DNA of 33,358 bases from a virus. Its lineage: Duplodnaviria; Heunggongvirae; Uroviricota; Caudoviricetes. Of this stretch, positions 1 through 24,791 are shown one piece after another. The stretch lies in the IMG/VR virus record IMGVR_UViG_2740892218_000011; one strand, given 5' to 3'. A model generated the notes under the pieces. The model saw only the letters and a list, made by a program, of their open reading frames with translations, did no database searches and was not told the DNA's origin. Each line of letters starts with the position of its first letter. The stretch's first letter is position 1. The position numbers and the translations under genes are program-made.

Positions 1-1002
1 TTACCCTCTATTGTCAAAAGGGTTCAATTCAACTGCAGCCTCTAAATGACCTGGAGCAAAATGCGCATAACGCATAGTCATTTTTATATCGCTATGCCCC
101 AGTATTTTTTGCAACACAAGAATATTTCCTCCCCGCATCATAAAATGACTGGCAAACGTGTGACGTAGCACATGAGTTAATTGCCCATCAGGAAGCTCGA
201 TCTTCGCTCTCTTAATTGCAGCGTCAAAAGCCTCATAACATGGTGAAAATAACGCTCCTCGTTTTTTAGGAAGCATAGCCTGCAATTGAGGTGAAATCGG
301 TACAGTGCGGTTCTTCTTTCCTTTAGTTTTAACAAATGTGATTCGACCGGGCAGCACTTGAGATTGCTTTAATCCTTCAGCTTCACTCCACCGAGCACCA
401 GTCGCAAGCCCAATACGGACAACAACCCCCAAATCTTTATTCCGTGACTCATCACACGCAATCAGAAGGCGTTCAATCTCATCTACATACAGAAACGCCA
501 ATTCCTTTTCTTCCTCACGAAACTTGCGAATGCCAGTCAGGGGGTTTTCACCAGACCACTCCCCAAGGCGCTTCAGTTCGGCAAAAACAGCATGTAGATA
601 TGACTGCTCGCGATTAACGGTTGCTTCACTAAGTTTTTTCTTCCCCTTGGGATTCCATTCTCCTGATAACCTCCTTTCCCGATAAGTAGCAAACATATTT
701 TTGTCAAACTGAGAAGCAAATGGATCTCCCAGCCTGGAACAAATAGACTCAAGTTTGACTTTGCGCTCTGCACCAGAGGACAAGGTTTTACCGTACATCT
801 CAAACCAACGAGCAACCAACTCAGAAAGACGAGGACCAGAACCATCTTGAAACTCGTCTCCAACTCTACTATTCATTAAACGGCGCTCATAAGAGAGCGC
901 CTCACTTTTTGTCGCAAACTGTTTACGAATACGTTTTCCCGATGCCCCGTAAGGATAACATTCGCAAAGCCATTTACCTGATGGAATCTTACGAACCGAC
1001 AT
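1..1002 (-). CDS. int: Tyrosine integrase (P2-like site-specific recombinase)
   Basis: 333 aa ORF; C-terminal catalytic region with HxxR and ...LGHSDIKMTMRYAH motif typical of phage tyrosine integrases; sits at the prophage end adjacent to the repressor operon as in P2. Confidence 0.9.
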   Translation of the reverse strand: MSVRKIPSGKWLCECYPYGASGKRIRKQFATKSEALSYERRLMNSRVGDEFQDGSGPRLSELVARWFEMYGKTLSSGAERKVKLESICSRLGDPFASQFDKNMFATYRERRLSGEWNPKGKKKLSEATVNREQSYLHAVFAELKRLGEWSGENPLTGIRKFREEEKELAFLYVDEIERLLIACDESRNKDLGVVVRIGLATGARWSEAEGLKQSQVLPGRITFVKTKGKKNRTVPISPQLQAMLPKKRGALFSPCYEAFDAAIKRAKIELPDGQLTHVLRHTFASHFMMRGGNILVLQKILGHSDIKMTMRYAHFAPGHLEAAVELNPFDNRG

Positions 1003-1007
1003 TTTAG

Positions 1008-1355
1008 TTACTTATCACATAAATCAAATGCAGCCTTAGTGACATCTCCCAGATTCTTTTTTAACCCTGGGGCGGCATCATTATCCAGCCAAAATGGATT
1101 ATTGTTATCTAACGGTAACGCACCAAATGTTTTACCTTTTATTCGAGCCAAACCTGTAAGCGCATATAACTTATTATCGTCAAAATTCATCACATAAGGA
1201 TTACCATCTAGACACTGTAACTGAACCTCATCAGTATTAAATGGCCATACCCCATTGAAACTCTCACGTTCAATATTTTTAAAAGGCATTGCGACGGCAG
1301 AAAAAGAAAACATAGATAAAAAAGTAACTAATAGTTGAACATTTTTTACTTTCAT
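1008..1355 (-). CDS. Small secreted protein (signal peptide, two Cys), possibly YebY/DUF2511-like; prophage cargo
   Basis: 115 aa; N-terminal hydrophobic signal peptide (LLVTFLSMFSFSAVA), Cys48 and Cys113; region looks AT-rich by eye; lies between repressor and int, where P2 has no gene. Confidence 0.6.
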   Translation of the reverse strand: MKVKNVQLLVTFLSMFSFSAVAMPFKNIERESFNGVWPFNTDEVQLQCLDGNPYVMNFDDNKLYALTGLARIKGKTFGALPLDNNNPFWLDNDAAPGLKKNLGDVTKAAFDLCDK

Positions 1356-1384
1356 ACCATTACCTCAATTTAGCTCAAGTAAGA

Positions 1385-2035
1385 TTACAAATTAAAAAAC
1401 ATCCTAGAAATGGCACCACCTACCACCCCCCCTACGCAGATAAAGAATATTATTTCTTTTGGATAAAGTCGGATTAATTCTGAAGCACGAAGTCGGACTT
1501 CTGGTAAGGTCGAATTCTCTGTGTTGCTTGATACCGATTGTTGCTCTAACCACGACAATGCAGACTGCAACTGAGAACGAGTAAGATCGTTTAAACGTCC
1601 TGTACCGAAATTGATATGGCAATACCGCAGAAGTTTTTGTCGAAGTCCACAGTCTTCACTGTTACGTAGTAATAAACTTACAAGAGCCTTACAGGCATCA
1701 TGATCTTTACATCGCTCAAGCATTGCATGCAGAAAACTCTCCGCTGTTTTATATTGATTTACTGTCATATCATCAATACCAGCTACACCAATCTCCGCAT
1801 GTACTTTTTGCCAAATAATAAACGCTTCAGTATTGCTAGCTTCTGCAATAGCAGCAACCAAGCTATTTAGCTCCTTACGCTGAGCCTTAAGCAAAGGGCG
1901 ATCGTCATCATCATTATTCGAAGGGATTGCGATATTGACGGTATGAGAACCATCATATCGCCCTATCTGAATATTCTTTTCGTGAAAATCACGCCCAGCA
2001 ACGCGATTGTTTGAACCGTTTGAGTTGACGGCCAT
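1385..2035 (-). CDS. Tail-anchored membrane protein of unknown function (immunity-operon cargo)
   Basis: 216 aa; strong SD (AGGGAGGTG) 12 nt after the repressor stop; single C-terminal TM helix (IIFFICVGGVVGGAISRMFF); N-terminus shares the motif NNR[VI]AGRD[FY] with the repressor C-terminus. Confidence 0.6.
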   Translation of the reverse strand: MAVNSNGSNNRVAGRDFHEKNIQIGRYDGSHTVNIAIPSNNDDDDRPLLKAQRKELNSLVAAIAEASNTEAFIIWQKVHAEIGVAGIDDMTVNQYKTAESFLHAMLERCKDHDACKALVSLLLRNSEDCGLRQKLLRYCHINFGTGRLNDLTRSQLQSALSWLEQQSVSSNTENSTLPEVRLRASELIRLYPKEIIFFICVGGVVGGAISRMFFNL

Positions 2036-2050
2036 GTCACCTCCCTACTA

Positions 2051-2455
2051 TCACCTACCCTTAGTTTCGTTATAGTCACGCCCAGCGATACGGTTATTAC
2101 CGCCAGAAATATTTAACTCACGTCCTGATGGCTGAGTTTCCTTTTCACTGGCCGCACCTTTTAAAGCCCCGATCACCGCGTTTTTCACATCTAACGAAGC
2201 TGCTCGAAAGCGAGTAATCAACTCCTGCTCATCATCGTTATAAGTTTCAGGTGAGTGAATTCCCAACACAACATACTGAACATCAAGACCAAAACGAGAC
2301 AGCGCTGCCAAATACGCAGCATCAGGAAAGCTATCTCCTTTCTCATATCTAAGCTGAGTTAGCTTTTTGACTCCACCAATGTCGCTCATAGCAACTTGAC
2401 TAAGTCCCAATCTTTCCCTTTCCTCACGCAACCTCTGACCAATATCATTTTTCAT
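2051..2455 (-). CDS. Immunity repressor, HTH_XRE family (C/CI-like)
   Basis: N-terminal HTH (IGQRLREERERLGLSQVAMSDIGGVKKLTQLRYEKG); divergent from the early operon; start placed at the internal Met (MKNDIGQ...) because the longer ORF would overlap the divergent gene start. Confidence 0.75.
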   Translation of the reverse strand: MKNDIGQRLREERERLGLSQVAMSDIGGVKKLTQLRYEKGDSFPDAAYLAALSRFGLDVQYVVLGIHSPETYNDDEQELITRFRAASLDVKNAVIGALKGAASEKETQPSGRELNISGGNNRIAGRDYNETKGR

Positions 2456-2531
2456 ACAAAAAACCTTGACAGGTATCTTTTTTGATACCAAAATGATTTC
2501 ACGAGCTATTAGATGATCACAATATATCACT
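2456..2531. promoter_or_regulatory. Divergent lysogenic/early promoter-operator region
   Basis: 76-bp gap between divergent repressor and early genes; TTGACA hexamer at 2466-2471 immediately followed by perfect palindrome GGTATC-TTTTTT-GATACC (2472-2489). Confidence 0.45.
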
Positions 2532-2738
2532 ATGAAACAAGTTCTTCACGATACCAGATCACGCATTCCGCGTAACACCGCCACAGGTCCAAGACTGGCA
2601 CTTCGGCTGTCCCTCGAGGAGCGAGCCGTCATTGATGAAATGGCAGCTAAAGAACAACGCTCATCCTCTAACATGGCGCGCATGATCTTCCTTCGCGGCC
2701 TAGAGCTAACCCAGAAAGAACAAAACAAATCTTCCTGA
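2532..2738 (+). CDS. Small ribbon-helix-helix-like DNA-binding protein (Cro/Apl-position early regulator)
   Basis: 68 aa; predicted beta-strand then two helices (LALRLSLEERAVIDEMAAKEQ...NMARMIFLRGLE) consistent with a CopG/Arc-type fold; first gene of the rightward early operon. Confidence 0.45.
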   Translation: MKQVLHDTRSRIPRNTATGPRLALRLSLEERAVIDEMAAKEQRSSSNMARMIFLRGLELTQKEQNKSS

Positions 2739-2754
2739 TCAGGAGGCTAATGGG

Positions 2755-2958
2755 ATGTCAGGTATAACCATCAATATCAATGTGAATGCCCCCTATGTAT
2801 CCCTGCAGAAATATGCAGAGATAACAGGTATCCCTCTTAATACATGCAAAAAGATGTTGGCTGACGGTCGAATTATTATCCGACCCAAACGCGCCAAAAT
2901 GGAAAAGCCTGAAGTAAACCTTGTGGCGATGTTAAAAGACGCTTTGGCTAACAGCTAA
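2755..2958 (+). CDS. Cox-like small HTH protein (putative excisionase / Pc repressor)
   Basis: 67 aa; pattern PYVSLQKYAEITGIPLNTCKKMLADGRI resembles the P2 Cox DNA-binding region (recalled from memory); SD GGAGG upstream. Confidence 0.5.
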   Translation: MSGITININVNAPYVSLQKYAEITGIPLNTCKKMLADGRIIIRPKRAKMEKPEVNLVAMLKDALANS

Positions 2959-2979
2959 AACAATGAACAGAGCATCATC

Positions 2980-3330
2980 ATGAAAAAAAACACTAATATT
3001 CCATACTCCAAATTTCGTAATGGCGTAGAACGCCACGCTAACCGTTTCGCTATCAGTACATCACGTAGCAACACTCGCTACAGCCTGAGCGAAACACACG
3101 CTACACCTGATGGCCATCCCGTAAAACAAATTGGTGAACACACCTGGCTGATTGAGAAAGCTGGAATCGTGGTTCACAGATGCCAACGCAACCCATTTAC
3201 CGGAAACCGCATTTTTGCTCTGAGCAACGGCGACAATCAGTTTGGACAGGATTTCACGTTGTACGAAGCTCTGCGCACGGTTGATCGTCTGCTGCGTGGA
3301 CAGAATTTCATTAAACAGGCTGATTTATAA
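2980..3330 (+). CDS. Early-operon hypothetical protein
   Basis: 116 aa ORF, same strand and tight spacing with neighbouring early genes; no recognisable domain. Confidence 0.5.
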   Translation: MKKNTNIPYSKFRNGVERHANRFAISTSRSNTRYSLSETHATPDGHPVKQIGEHTWLIEKAGIVVHRCQRNPFTGNRIFALSNGDNQFGQDFTLYEALRTVDRLLRGQNFIKQADL

Positions 3331-3340
3331 CAGGTGCTTT

Positions 3341-3619
3341 ATGACCAAAGACCATGCTCAGGGTGTATTTATCCGCTTTATTGATTTTCGCGGTGAGCTG
3401 TTGTTGCGCGCATCAGCTATTGATGGAGTGGTTTCGGTAGATAAAAGCACGGCCACTTACATTTATCTGAACGGCACACGCCTGACCGTAGAGATTCCAT
3501 ATCAACCCGTATGCGAAATTATTAGAGAAGCTGAAAAAGCACGTCAGGTTAATGGCGATAAACCCTATCTCGAAATTATCTGCATGGATTCAGAAGCTGA
3601 AATTCAGAAGGCAGATTAA
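3341..3619 (+). CDS. Early-operon hypothetical protein
   Basis: Start set at ATG 3341 (MTKDHAQ...) preceded by CAGGTG; the longer track ORF from 3242 overlaps the upstream gene. Confidence 0.5.
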   Translation: MTKDHAQGVFIRFIDFRGELLLRASAIDGVVSVDKSTATYIYLNGTRLTVEIPYQPVCEIIREAEKARQVNGDKPYLEIICMDSEAEIQKAD

Positions 3620-21219: not shown

Positions 21220-22715
21220 CAGTGAAATACTACGCTATTCTGACTAATCAGGGCGCAGCACGGCTGGCTAACGCGACGATGCTCGGCAGTAAGCTGAATC
21301 TGACGCAAATGGCCGTTGGTGATGCGAATGGTGTCTTACCGACACCAGACCCGGCACAGACAAAACTGATTAACCAGAAACGCATCGCGCCGCTGAATCT
21401 TCTGAGTGTTGACCCTAACAATCAGAGCCAGATTATTGCGGAGCAAATCATCCCTGAAAACGAGGGCGGATTCTGGATCCGTGAGATTGGACTTTATGAT
21501 GATGAAGGCGTACTCATTGCGGTGGCGAACTGCCCGGAAACGTACAAACCGCAGTTGCAGGAAGGCAGTGGTCGTACCCAGACTATCCGCATGATTCTGG
21601 TTGTCACGAATACCGAAGCTATTACGCTGAAAATCGACCCGTCGGTGGTACTGGCAACCCGTAAATACGTGGATGATGAAGTCCTGGAATTAAGGCTGTA
21701 TGTGGATGACCAGATGAGAAACCACATTGCCGCACAGGATCCTCATACCCAGTATGCACAGAAACATAATCCGACATTTACCGGAGAACCAAAGGCGCCG
21801 ACGCCTGCCGCAGGAAATAACACCACGCGGATTGCGACTACTGCGTTTGTTCAGGCCGCTATTACCGCTCTGATTAACGGTGCGCCAGCCACGCTGGACA
21901 CACTGAAAGAAATTGCCGCAGCCATTAACAATGACCCGAAATTCAGCACCACCATTAACAATGCGCTGGCACTGAAAGCGCCGCTGTCGAGTCCCGCACT
22001 TACCGGAACGCCAACAGCACCTACTGCGGCACAGTCGGTCAACAATACACAAATTGCCACCACGGCTTTTGTGAAATCAGCAATTGCGGCAATGGTGGGT
22101 TCTGCCCCTGCGGCACTGGATACACTGAATGAACTGGCGGCGGCGCTGGGGAATGACCCTAACTTTTCAACAACAGTACTTAATGCACTGGCAGGTAAAC
22201 AACCGCTGGACAATACGCTGACTAATTTGAGTGGAAAGGATGTTGCTGGTCTTCTCGCATACCTTGGTTTGGGGGAAGGTTCTGCGTTGCCTGTTGGTGT
22301 AACAGTTCCGTGGCCTTCAGCCACACCTCCAGAGGGCTGGCTAAAATGCAATGGTGCTGCCTTTGATAAGCTGAAGTATCCCAAACTAGCCACAGCGTAC
22401 CCGTCAGGAAAACTGCCTGATTTACGCGGTGAATTTATTCGTGGCTGGGATGATGGGCGTGGTATTGATGCCGGACGTGCTTTATTGAGTATTCAGAGAG
22501 ATGAGGTTAGAAAGCTCGAATTGAAATACTGGGGACCGGCCTCAAACAGTTCACCATCAAAAACATTTGCAATCAGCGACAGTGCAGGAGGCGGGCTGTA
22601 TACAGATGGAATAAGTCAGTCGGGCGGCGGAGTATTTAATGCCTTTAAGATTCCCGGCGGTAGTGAAACACGCCCGCGAAATATTGCATTTAACTATATT
22701 GTGAGAGCTGCATGA
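21216..22715 (+). CDS. H: Tail fiber protein H (constant N-terminus plus currently expressed variable C-terminus)
   Basis: 499 aa; repeated tail-fiber motifs (TAFV...A...AP..LDTL.E.AAA..ND); the last 150 codons or so lie inside the invertible segment. Confidence 0.85.
   Translation: MTVKYYAILTNQGAARLANATMLGSKLNLTQMAVGDANGVLPTPDPAQTKLINQKRIAPLNLLSVDPNNQSQIIAEQIIPENEGGFWIREIGLYDDEGVLIAVANCPETYKPQLQEGSGRTQTIRMILVVTNTEAITLKIDPSVVLATRKYVDDEVLELRLYVDDQMRNHIAAQDPHTQYAQKHNPTFTGEPKAPTPAAGNNTTRIATTAFVQAAITALINGAPATLDTLKEIAAAINNDPKFSTTINNALALKAPLSSPALTGTPTAPTAAQSVNNTQIATTAFVKSAIAAMVGSAPAALDTLNELAAALGNDPNFSTTVLNALAGKQPLDNTLTNLSGKDVAGLLAYLGLGEGSALPVGVTVPWPSATPPEGWLKCNGAAFDKLKYPKLATAYPSGKLPDLRGEFIRGWDDGRGIDAGRALLSIQRDEVRKLELKYWGPASNSSPSKTFAISDSAGGGLYTDGISQSGGGVFNAFKIPGGSETRPRNIAFNYIVRAA
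22252..22277. repeat. Invertase crossover site, left (hix/gix-like)
   Basis: TTCTCGCATACC-TT-GGTTTGGGGGAA inside H; right half-site resembles gix GGTTTTGGATAA. Confidence 0.55.
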
Positions 22716-23317
22716 TGAATAACGCGATATTAAACAATGAGCTTATTGCCGTACAGGAAGGAAACATTATCGTTTACAACTATAACAGTGAGACAAGGGA
22801 ATATATTTCTGCATCAACCGAATTTCTTGCTGTAGGTGTTGGTATTCCGGCGTATTCCTGTTTAGATGCACCTGGCACACATAAAGCTGGTTATGCTATC
22901 TGCCGTTCAGCAGATTTAAACTCATGGGAGTATGTGCCAGACCATCGCGGTGAAACGGTCTATAACACTGAAACAGGAGAAGCAAAAGAAATTACAGTAC
23001 CGGGAGATTATCCTGAAAATACAACCACTCTCGCTCCGTTAACGTCATACGATAAATGGGATGGTGAGAAATGGGTGACCGATACTGAGGCACAGCATAG
23101 CGCCGCAGTCGAAGCGGCAGAAGCACAGCGCCAGTCACTGATTGATGCTGCTATGGCTTCCATCAGTCTGATTCAACTGAAATTGCAGGCCGGACGGAAA
23201 CTGACGCAGGCAGAAACAACCCGACTTAACGCCGTGCTGGATTACACTGACGCGGTGACGGCAACAGATACCAGCACCGCGCCGGATGTCATCTGGCCTG
23301 AACTGCCGGAGGCGTAG
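22712..23317 (+). CDS. G: Tail fiber assembly chaperone G
   Basis: 201 aa; conserved C-terminus (...DVIWPELPEA) shared with the inverted paralog. Confidence 0.8.
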   Translation: MMNNAILNNELIAVQEGNIIVYNYNSETREYISASTEFLAVGVGIPAYSCLDAPGTHKAGYAICRSADLNSWEYVPDHRGETVYNTETGEAKEITVPGDYPENTTTLAPLTSYDKWDGEKWVTDTEAQHSAAVEAAEAQRQSLIDAAMASISLIQLKLQAGRKLTQAETTRLNAVLDYTDAVTATDTSTAPDVIWPELPEA

Positions 23318-23741
23318 GCCATTTAATATCTGGCGCACCGGAAGTATCGACCAGTTCCAGTGCGTCCAGATAATCCAGCCACAGATTATATTGCGCCAGT
23401 TCCTCGCCTTTCAGACGACCAATAGCCGCTTTACCAGGCCATTGTTTACTGTTCATATAATCGTTGGCCTGATTAATTAGTAGCTGTCTTTCTGATTCAG
23501 TAATTTCAATAAGTTCTTCATGCGTAGGGGCAGGAATATCCGCCCACGCGGGCAGCCCATCACCTCCGGCAATACGGATTTTTCCTTGTGGCGGTTCAGC
23601 CATAAATTCACTGATAATATTTTGACTCACCTCCTTAGCATCTGATAAATCCCATCCCTCTGATTTATATTTATCAATCATATCCACAGGGAAAAAAGCA
23701 TTATGCCTTGCGCTATAAACATATTCGTTCATATAAATCAT
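23289..23741 (-). CDS. Alternative tail fiber assembly chaperone (G')
   Basis: 150 aa on the opposite strand; C-terminus (...PDIKWPTPPAVQAR) homologous to G; 3' ends of G and G' overlap convergently. Confidence 0.75.
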   Translation of the reverse strand: MIYMNEYVYSARHNAFFPVDMIDKYKSEGWDLSDAKEVSQNIISEFMAEPPQGKIRIAGGDGLPAWADIPAPTHEELIEITESERQLLINQANDYMNSKQWPGKAAIGRLKGEELAQYNLWLDYLDALELVDTSGAPDIKWPTPPAVQAR

Positions 23742-23752
23742 CCTGAATAAAA

Positions 23753-24163
23753 TTATTCACCAACAGCCCACCAACTGTAAGTCATTGACACCTTGTCGCT
23801 GGTTGATGCAGTTCTGTAAGCAGAATTAAAGCCGGTTAATGTTGGGCCTTCTACGGACATAACGAATCCACGCCCTGCACCAAAAGGCGCACCGCCATCG
23901 CCAGAATGGGTAAGAATGGCGATATCCGCTTTTTTAGGGAAAGGGATAGGAAATGTAATCCTCATTGTTTGCGTCGATAATTTCGGCATAGCCTCACCAC
24001 GACCATATTGCAGGATTTTCCCGTTGGGTAATTTCATCCATCCATCACCACTGGCAAAAGAGGCCATGTCCGGTATCTGATTTTCCCCTGTCCCCACCCC
24101 TCGTTTTGCTGCTTCTCCCAAACCAACGTTTTTAACTTCGAAAACAGAGCTATCTAATAGCAT
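23753..24163 (-). CDS. Alternative tail fiber C-terminal cassette (H'), expressed only after inversion
   Basis: Minus-strand ORF that crosses the right crossover site in the same codon phase as H; shares the GLGE junction with H. Confidence 0.7.
   Translation of the reverse strand: MLLDSSVFEVKNVGLGEAAKRGVGTGENQIPDMASFASGDGWMKLPNGKILQYGRGEAMPKLSTQTMRITFPIPFPKKADIAILTHSGDGGAPFGAGRGFVMSVEGPTLTGFNSAYRTASTSDKVSMTYSWWAVGE
24113..24138. repeat. Invertase crossover site, right (inverted copy)
   Basis: Reverse complement reads AAGTTAAAAACG-TT-GGTTTGGGAGAA; matches the left site in 15-16 of 18 core positions. Confidence 0.55.
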
Positions 24164-24182
24164 TTTTACTAACAGAAACAGG

Positions 24183-24791
24183 ATGCTTTTTATGCAAATT
24201 GGCTATATTCGCGTATCAACAAATGACCAGAACACGGATTTGCAACGCAATGCGCTCAATAGCGCAGGATGTGAACTGATTTTTGAAGATAAAATCAGCG
24301 GAACAAAATCAGCCAGACCGGGATTGAAAAAACTGCTCAGAACGTTATCAGCGGGGGATACGCTCGTTGTCTGGAAACTGGACAGGCTGGGCAGAAGCAT
24401 GAAACACCTGATCACACTGATTGAGGAATTGCGGAAAAAAGGTGTCAATTTTCGTAGTCTGACGGATTCAATTGATACCAGCACCCCAATGGGACGATTT
24501 TTCTTCCACGTGATGGGCGCCCTGGCTGAAATGGAACGTGAATTAATTGTAGAGCGTACACTGGCCGGACTGGCAGCAGCCCGCGCACAGGGGCGAATTG
24601 GTGGGCGTCGCCCGAAACTGACAAAAGAGCAACATGAGCAAATAGCGAGGCTGATTAAAAACGGCCACGACAGAAAACAGCTGGCCATAATTTACGACAT
24701 CGGTATATCGACGATTTATCGTTATCACCCTGTAGGTGACACGCAACCCGGAGGAATAATTGAGAATACTCAGGAAACAAAAAACCGCTAA
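24183..24791 (+). CDS. Serine DNA invertase (Hin/Gin/Pin/Cin family)
   Basis: 202 aa; N-terminal catalytic region IGYIRVSTNDQNTDLQ with active-site Ser, resolvase fold motifs (VVWKLDRLGRS), C-terminal HTH. Confidence 0.9.
   Translation: MLFMQIGYIRVSTNDQNTDLQRNALNSAGCELIFEDKISGTKSARPGLKKLLRTLSAGDTLVVWKLDRLGRSMKHLITLIEELRKKGVNFRSLTDSIDTSTPMGRFFFHVMGALAEMERELIVERTLAGLAAARAQGRIGGRRPKLTKEQHEQIARLIKNGHDRKQLAIIYDIGISTIYRYHPVGDTQPGGIIENTQETKNR

Follow-up and report, generated by a model that had tools for sequence, protein, structure and literature searches.

The interval between the repressor and the integrase

The IMG/VR virus record IMGVR_UViG_2740892218_000011 is a stretch of 33,358 nucleotides (nt), referred to here as the window, from a tailed phage of the class Caudoviricetes. 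The prophage is P2-like and Xuanwuvirus-like, and the genes outside the interval considered here are the standard P2-like set. The interval is a tightly spaced run of minus strand genes that encodes, from 5' to 3', a helix-turn-helix (HTH) repressor, an open reading frame (ORF) of 216 residues, an ORF of 115 residues, and the integrase, int. An earlier note on this DNA had read the two genes in the middle as a single cargo module, inserted between the repressor and int and used by the lysogen for exclusion or defence. The gene order, coordinates, and strand are as the note gave them, and the membrane anchor at the end of the 216-residue protein and the secreted, two-cysteine character of the 115-residue protein are both present.

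The reading frame of the repressor ends in TGA and is followed by TAG TAG, GGGAGGTGAC, and the ATG of the 216-residue ORF, giving three consecutive in-frame stop codons (2036-2053). The distance from stop to ATG is 15 nt, and a Shine-Dalgarno sequence, GGGAGGTG, starts a few nucleotides past the stop. The gap between the 216- and 115-residue ORFs is 29 nt, with GAGG inside it, and the stop of the latter is separated from the ATG of int by the 5 nt CTAAA, a spacing that the note had also given correctly. A scan for promoters and terminators revealed no convincing intrinsic terminator between the four genes, the counts not being above those in shuffled sequence. The sole candidate among these genes is weak, with 3 GC pairs, and is located within the part of the 216-residue ORF that encodes its transmembrane segment. 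A search of positions 1-3400 against Rfam returned zero matches at E-values up to 0.1. The placing of both genes within one repressor-to-int unit therefore stands, and the tight spacing and lack of a convincing terminator suggest that the repressor promoter probably drives the expression of both in the lysogen.

The 216-residue gene is in the same frame as the repressor, with the triple stop lying between them. The two genes are also in frame at several other P2-like loci, which have gaps of 9, 15, or 18 nt, and at many Mu-like loci they are out of frame or overlap at the start and stop codons (ATGA).

It had been suggested that the inserted segment is AT-rich. This is real but graded, with a GC content of 0.348 in the 115-residue gene, 0.413 in the 216-residue gene, 0.444 in the repressor gene, and 0.445 in int, against 0.526 for the whole window; only the 115-residue gene differs from its immediate neighbours. 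Both ORFs are conserved as proteins across genera and are therefore real genes rather than chance reading frames. The features of the interval are given in Table 1.

Table 1. Features of the repressor to integrase interval, in window coordinates.
Position	Strand	Feature	Basis
1-1002	-	P2-type tyrosine integrase, 333 residues, last gene of the unit	Pfam Int_N and Phage_integrase
1003-1384	-	Hypervariable slot for cargo, bounded by the Flk_N gene and int; holds a YebY-like gene here	Comparison with related prophages
1008-1355	-	Predicted periplasmic YebY/DUF2511 paralogue, 115 residues	Pfam PF10709, PDB 7n0j, phrog_2950, Cys positions
1385-2035	-	Tail-anchored inner-membrane protein (predicted topology), 216 residues, Flk_N family; conserved partner of the repressor	PF27202, NCBIfam Flk, phrog_5825, position
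1391-1462	-	C-terminal transmembrane anchor, residues 192-215	Hydropathy, AF2 helix, family conservation
1523-1900	-	Predicted cytoplasmic helical Flk_N domain, residues 46-171	
1979-2029	-	N-terminal mimic peptide VNSNGSNNRVAGRDFHE, residues 3-19	Alignment to repressor tail; AF2 disorder
2036-2050	-	Junction: two extra in-frame stops (TAG TAG), then the ribosome-binding site	Direct sequence reading
2051-2455	-	Putative HTH immunity-type repressor, 134 residues from ATG	Pfam HTH_31/HTH_3, PHROG repressor families, AF2, homologues
2066-2116	-	Repressor C-terminal tail motif LNISGGNNRIAGRDYNE, residues 114-130	Conserved in relatives, disordered, co-varies with the downstream N-terminus

Repressor tails and the membrane protein encoded next

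The AlphaFold2 (AF2) model of the repressor has an HTH domain (residues 1-64), two helices (74-102), and a disordered tail (103-134), and the C-terminus reads ...LNISGGNNRIAGRDYNETKGR. The tail motif is kept in nearly all of the P2-like relatives and is predicted to be disordered, with a confidence score (predicted local distance difference test, pLDDT) of ~44. The gene is divergent from a Cox-like early operon. Homologues of the repressor include ORF18 of phage B3, gp17 of phage BcepMu, and the 'repressor' of Ps59, and a search based on the repressor found relatives that bear differing tails. The same family also provides the repressor of Mu-like transposable prophages, where genes for an rve transposase and a MuB-like protein are divergent from it.

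When the P2-like and Mu-like repressors are aligned, the HTH region, to which the presumed recognition helix GGVKKLTQLxYEKGE belongs, is unusually conserved for immunity repressors (45-80% identity over the range from Escherichia to Pseudomonas), and the tail is the variable part. Between the start of the repressor gene and the divergent early genes is a perfect 18 nt palindrome, GGTATCTTTTTTGATACC (2472-2489), that is a candidate operator. It adjoins the TTGACA of a promoter-like site (2466-2494, plus strand), the only strong one. Beyond the palindrome are two overlapping ORFs on opposite strands (2532-2738, plus; 2546-2728, minus) that are annotated differently in public records. The plus strand ORF is an 'Arc-like repressor' in the phage record and RefSeq E. 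coli annotation has a 45-residue hypothetical protein on the minus strand.

The 216-residue protein is a member of the Flk_N family. It matches the NCBIfam Flk model (PRK10715) over residues 36-169 (E 4e-16, 59 bits against an equivalog cut-off of 353) and matches phrog_5825 (E 6e-101). The Pfam family PF27202 (Flk_N) is precomputed for a cluster representative with 96% identity and for 118 of 120 listed relatives. A disordered N-terminus (residues 1-23, pLDDT ~40), a confident helical domain, and a C-terminal transmembrane helix are predicted by AF2. Hydropathy reaches its maximum, 2.02, at residues 195-213, 3 residues short of the C-terminus; this is the only strongly hydrophobic segment in the protein, and the hydrophobic C-terminus is at a conserved position across the family. 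From this predicted topology, the protein is membrane-anchored with its bulk in the cytoplasm. Pfam matches to ELYS and zf-P11 were dismissed, both being under their cut-offs.

The N-terminus of the 216-residue protein, MAVNSNGSNNRVAGRDFHEKNIQI, resembles the repressor tail. Between the two peptides 10 of 17 residues are identical, and the motif is found only at these two places in a six-frame translation of the window. Both copies are predicted to be disordered, while the domains that flank them are confidently folded. Readthrough or fusion joining the repressor to the 216-residue protein was considered and rejected, given the triple stop here and the gaps elsewhere, which are often not multiples of three. 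No paper was found in the literature on the Flk_N phage family (as Flk_N, PF27202, or phrog_5825) or on mimicry between a repressor and a partner protein.

The wider occurrence of the two genes was assessed at 15 genomic loci and at 80 IMG/VR loci retrieved with the Flk-like protein. The repressor gene is followed by the Flk_N gene, with a gap of 2-22 nt, at the 15 loci, which represent at least 12 genera of Enterobacterales, and the same order is found at all 80 of the IMG/VR loci. The Flk_N gene is directly 3' of the repressor gene at every locus examined except that of Erwinia pyrifoliae, where a YebY gene is between them. In Mu-like prophages of Pectobacterium, Pseudomonas, Gilliamella, and metagenomes, the repressor family is followed by Flk_N or by another membrane protein. 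The linkage extends to the type phages B3 (ORF18/ORF20) and BcepMu (gp17/gp18), whose records label ORF20 and gp18 merely as 'hypothetical' or 'membrane protein'. Close relatives of the repressor that are without the tail, ending ...AFAQSKSKVKTGDDK, have no partner gene, and either int or a cargo gene comes next; at locus L204, for example, int directly follows the tail-less repressor. Judged from these loci, the genes for the repressor and its membrane partner travel as a conserved pair among phages of unrelated types. In its position after the repressor, an N-terminus that matches the tail, and a membrane segment, the 216-residue protein has the features of a repressor-coupled membrane partner, and its gene, on this comparison of loci, is part of the immunity module rather than cargo.

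In the Mu-like lineages too, the N-terminus of the membrane protein encoded by the next gene resembles the repressor tail of its own lineage (Table 2).

Table 2. Repressor tails and the N-termini encoded downstream in other lineages.
Lineage	Repressor tail	Downstream N-terminus
Pectobacterium	QIFNGDISGQFAGNQIINN	QEFNGTAQGQFSSRDIINI
Metagenome L030	QVFHGAVSGGVAARDIINN	QEFQGNVDGGVAGRDIVNQ
L032	QTFHGSVGQSVAGNVTN	QDFHGGVGQAAAGDINN
Pseudomonas phage B3 (L201)	ORF18, ...ISVTGDGNRTAGRDFHERKE	ORF20, VNIEVTGSNNIVAGRDFIENH
Burkholderia phage BcepMu (L202)	gp17, ...QEQVFHGSVGQAVKVEGN...	gp18 'membrane protein', ...KQEFNKPVGQAIQAGEAN

The matching of tail and N-terminus within each lineage was evaluated through Smith-Waterman alignment in 22 non-redundant lineages, with the pairings permuted. 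Cognate pairs have a mean score of 43.1 and non-cognate pairs 25.2. None of 200,000 permutations reached the observed sum (948; permuted maximum 831), and in a version of the test with 8 lineages it was reached by 4 of 40,320. Independent divergence after one ancient duplication would leave all pairs equally diverged, therefore the cognate excess indicates co-evolution or repeated conversion. The same codon is used at 68 of the 165 identical residues (41%). With so few codons shared, the similarity would be held at the level of protein sequence, and gene conversion or recent duplication was rejected as the source of the likeness.

It is possible to account for the matching peptides through a common third factor, such as a protease or adaptor, that recognises both of them. 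The 216-residue protein would then act independently of the repressor, as an inner-membrane exclusion or host-modifying protein, perhaps as a decoy in the way that lambda CIII is for FtsH. Like degrons, both peptides are located at a terminus and are predicted to be disordered. The last stretch of the repressor tails is rich in Lys and Arg, and co-variation is also expected if both peptides must fit one partner. Tail-anchored or single-pass proteins of prophages can block DNA entry, which would suit an exclusion function. However, a host factor common to Escherichia, Pseudomonas, Burkholderia, and Gilliamella should hold the motif constant. Instead it diversifies with each lineage and yet stays matched within each phage, which is a better fit to pairwise recognition, and the third factor is considered unlikely.

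Another explanation is that the phage has a copy of Flk, the Fluke/RflH protein of hosts such as Salmonella and E. coli, and that this 216-residue protein acts on the flagellar type III export gate to alter motility or flagellin display in lysogens. The matches to PRK10715 and PF27202 are in keeping with this, and host Flk is likewise tail-anchored and faces the cytoplasm with a helical Flk_N domain (PMC13344023). However, host Flk is ~330 residues with two units, the long forms showing two matched stretches, and is without the N-terminal motif. The phage proteins are 190-230 residues with one Flk_N unit and the mimic peptide, are phage-borne and linked to the repressor, and the score of the one found here is well under the equivalog cut-off. 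The family is also found in non-flagellate hosts, being abundant in Klebsiella pneumoniae (P0100 on 754 contigs), a species that is classically non-flagellate. In addition, several lineages have replaced or reduced the Flk_N domain (L027, L030, and B3 ORF20) and have kept the N-terminal motif and the membrane segment or segments. A flagellar function is highly improbable on these grounds.

The slot next to int and its YebY-like gene

In the loci sampled, ~300-1,100 bp are present between the homologue of the 216-residue gene and int, and this slot holds at least 9 alternative contents in related prophages. The contents across these loci are YebY; an acidic DUF8087 protein; a BRCT(+WYL-like) protein of ~290 residues; a 291-residue protein with a partial PDC-S48 match; proteins of ~243 residues with an N-terminal transmembrane segment; secreted proteins of 137 or 198 residues; a Zn-finger protein; an XhlA-like protein; and nothing. 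Sister prophages from Klebsiella differ in the slot cargo only, with YebY in one (L117) and the BRCT protein in the other (L003). Unrelated genes thus occupy the same position in related prophages at 1003-1384 of the window, and this is not so of the conserved gene at 1385-2035. None of the slot cargoes in the sampled loci is a recognised defence system. The ~290-residue cargoes with BRCT and weak WYL or PDC-S48 matches (L003, 5647-6513; L015, 4635-5513; L017, 4663-5538) could be candidates for DNA damage or nucleotide sensing.

A gene at the cI-int position of K139, glo, is said to have been described by Nesper and colleagues in 1999 as encoding a periplasmic exclusion protein. A hotspot between cI and int has been described for K139-like Vibrio phages (PMC9122126), and in P2-like prophages ~8% of defence systems are between int and the primase gene (PMC13586616). 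The slot described here is similar to these in being a variable repressor-integrase locus with diverse accessory genes. It differs in that the cargoes are small and without recognised defence domains, and in that the slot comes after the Flk_N gene rather than after the repressor.

The 115-residue protein is a YebY/DUF2511 paralogue. It matches PF10709 with 25.7 bits (gathering cut-off 21), a family that is also precomputed for its relatives, and it matches phrog_2950. The protein also matches the structure of E. coli YebY, PDB 7n0j (E-value 0.009), over a stretch that takes in the C-terminal Cys, which is aligned. The N-terminus is signal-peptide-like over residues 1-22, MKVKNVQLLVTFLSMFSFSAVA|MP, with an AVA|MP site. 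There are exactly two cysteines, Cys48 and Cys113, the same numbering as in the disulfide of E. coli YebY (PMC8689200). The signal peptide, the mature domain of ~90 residues, and the Cys48/Cys113 positions are features shared with E. coli YebY and with MlbQ of Microbispora, also of DUF2511/PF10709. Unlike E. coli YebY, the gene is outside the yobA-yebZ-yebY (AZY) copper uptake operon, its neighbours being the Flk_N gene and int, with no yobA (CopC) or yebZ (CopD), and it belongs to a narrow phage subfamily with 17 clusters at 90% identity. In Klebsiella the phage-type YebY is in the same slot position.

YebY is a weak binder of copper and damps the copper import that depends on YebZ (PMC8689200, PMC11923076). 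Hadley et al. remarked in passing that in some Enterobacteriaceae a YebY gene is flanked by genes for a XerD-like recombinase and for a CI-type repressor (PMC8689200). By homology and location, the 115-residue gene is a genuine moron in a known kind of location, one that has been noted before. Its product would be a small secreted, disulfide-bonded, periplasmic binding protein. By analogy to YebY and MlbQ, it may have a role in lysogenic conversion, through damping of YebZ copper import or binding of a peptide antibiotic, or it may have a role in exclusion.

The earlier note had found no function that could be assigned to either protein. This can be improved on to the extent of family membership, in YebY/DUF2511 for the one and in Flk_N for the other. 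Its reading of the two genes as one lysogen-expressed superinfection exclusion or abortive infection module, acquired as cargo and analogous to rexAB, has some support. The genes share a strand and a unit with the repressor and are tightly spaced, the products are predicted to be in the membrane and in the periplasm, and the stretch beside int is a hotspot for cargo (PMC9122126, PMC13586616). YebY is also the commonest companion of the Flk_N gene, at 45 of the 80 sampled loci, although these are mostly near-identical E. coli prophages. However, the assortment of the two genes is independent. At least 9 other cargoes, or none, accompany the Flk_N gene, and in Mu-like phages it is present without YebY and without int at that position. 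It is absent where the repressor has no tail, and it tracks that tail rather than the cargo. In Erwinia the YebY gene is on the other side of the Flk_N gene. A search of PADLOC-DB v2, RexAB included, with E-values up to 1 gave zero defence families for either protein, leaving the defence reading without a match. The idea of cargo insertion therefore holds for the slot next to int and fails for the 216-residue gene, which is conserved after the repressor whatever the cargo; comparison of related P2-like loci, proposed in the note as a check, divides the two genes in the same way. A joint module is considered very unlikely.

The analogy drawn to lambda cI-rexA-rexB is apt in so far as the accessory genes are directly 3' of the repressor gene, are in lambda, and probably here, under the maintenance promoter, and have one membrane product. 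There is no sequence relation between the two systems. The membrane protein here bears a copy of the repressor tail, and the second gene is for an exchangeable periplasmic protein rather than a fixed partner. The likeness may go further in a way that was not intended, as lambda RexA, whose gene is transcribed together with cI, binds the CI protein and biases the switch, with RexB as a modulator (bioRxiv 10.1101/2021.04.19.439022).

The proposed pairing and the prophage that carries it

Taken with the assortment of the slot cargoes, the linkage and co-variation suggest that the two genes are functionally separate, one for a repressor-coupled membrane partner and the other for an exchangeable moron. 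This reading is given a probability of roughly 0.55. The chances that the 216-residue protein has a regulatory role linked to the repressor are about even. The repressor tail and the N-terminal peptide would either pair directly or compete for a single site, and the membrane protein would tether, titrate, or stabilise and protect the repressor at the membrane. Capture of the repressor in this way would tune the maintenance or induction of lysogeny, following a logic like that of an anti-sigma factor or antirepressor. In membrane anti-sigma factors such as RseA, and in antirepressors such as Tum and Ant, a partner likewise binds the regulator, and the anti-sigma factor holds it at the membrane as is proposed here. 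Unlike these, the 216-residue protein has no homology to them, is probably co-transcribed with the repressor, and would recognise it via matching terminal peptides.

Several observations count against this interpretation. At locus L116, in a Mu-like prophage (GCA_003702345.1, 2570-3675), the repressor has a helical C-terminal domain and no motif of the Gly/Asn type, yet the Flk_N neighbour is present. The Flk_N protein at this locus has a helical N-terminal extension of ~40 residues, and the variant neither fits nor clearly breaks the association of tail and partner; it may represent a different mode of pairing. The match between tail and N-terminus is weak in lineages L162, L191, and L187. 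The co-variation speaks to coupled evolution and not to binding, and a third factor could recognise both peptides. Homology and position are the grounds on which the 134-residue protein is taken to be the immunity repressor. The identity of the 115-residue protein to host YebY is also low, as the E-value of 0.009 reflects.

A broader proposal is that a widespread, undescribed device is present in P2-like, B3-like, and BcepMu-like phages, in which a co-evolving copy of the repressor tail on a membrane protein captures, releases, or protects the repressor and so couples the lysis-lysogeny switch to the state of the envelope. This is put forward tentatively, as something possible rather than probable in so specific a form, although there is a substantial chance of a general control device that has not been described. 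What is new here is the mimicry between the terminal peptides of a repressor and its membrane partner; accessory proteins that are co-transcribed with a phage repressor and act on it are, as the comparisons suggest, of a known kind.

To our knowledge, phages of the P2, B3, and BcepMu types do not have an SOS-cleavable (S24 peptidase-type) repressor. Should the mimicry reflect binding, it would provide a concrete and testable route to the tuning of lysogeny in such non-SOS phages. It would likewise account for a gene that about one in ten complete E. coli genomes, as well as B3 and BcepMu, have under the label 'hypothetical'. For the mining of defence hotspots in this lineage, the variable slot should be looked for beyond the Flk_N gene rather than directly beyond the repressor. 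The small, uncharacterised proteins encoded in the slot, of both envelope and cytoplasm, merit screening.

The interval shares 98.5% identity with Escherichia phage 520873 (Peduoviridae, Xuanwuvirus) and is matched in 519 of 5,426 complete E. coli genome sequences (~10%; at least 80% identity), O157:H7 included, with one copy in each. In both of the annotated genomes inspected, those of strain H3 and O157:H7 TW14359, the prophage adjoins yecA. A literature search on CP-933T/Sp13 found nothing relevant. Phage 520873 (NC_049344.1 / CP025923.1, 2040-3090) is the sole deposited phage genome with both genes. Both genes are unannotated in its record, where they align in 3-4 pieces and int is broken into two parts. 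Frameshift errors in the record, or decay of the prophage, are the probable cause.

Two other regions of the window were noted. Between the replication gene gpA and the portal gene, a position which we take to be the main P2 defence hotspot, is a plasmid-type partition pair (7925-9202, plus strand) made up of ParM (StbA_N and ParM C-terminal domains) and Plasmid_stab_B (StbB/ParR-like). At 22712-24791 there is an apparent invertible tail-fibre segment, with a tail-fibre assembly gene on the plus strand (22712-23317), an inverted second assembly gene and fibre C-terminal ORF on the minus strand (23289-24163), and, after the inverted fibre ORFs, a serine invertase with Resolvase and HTH_7 domains (24183-24791).

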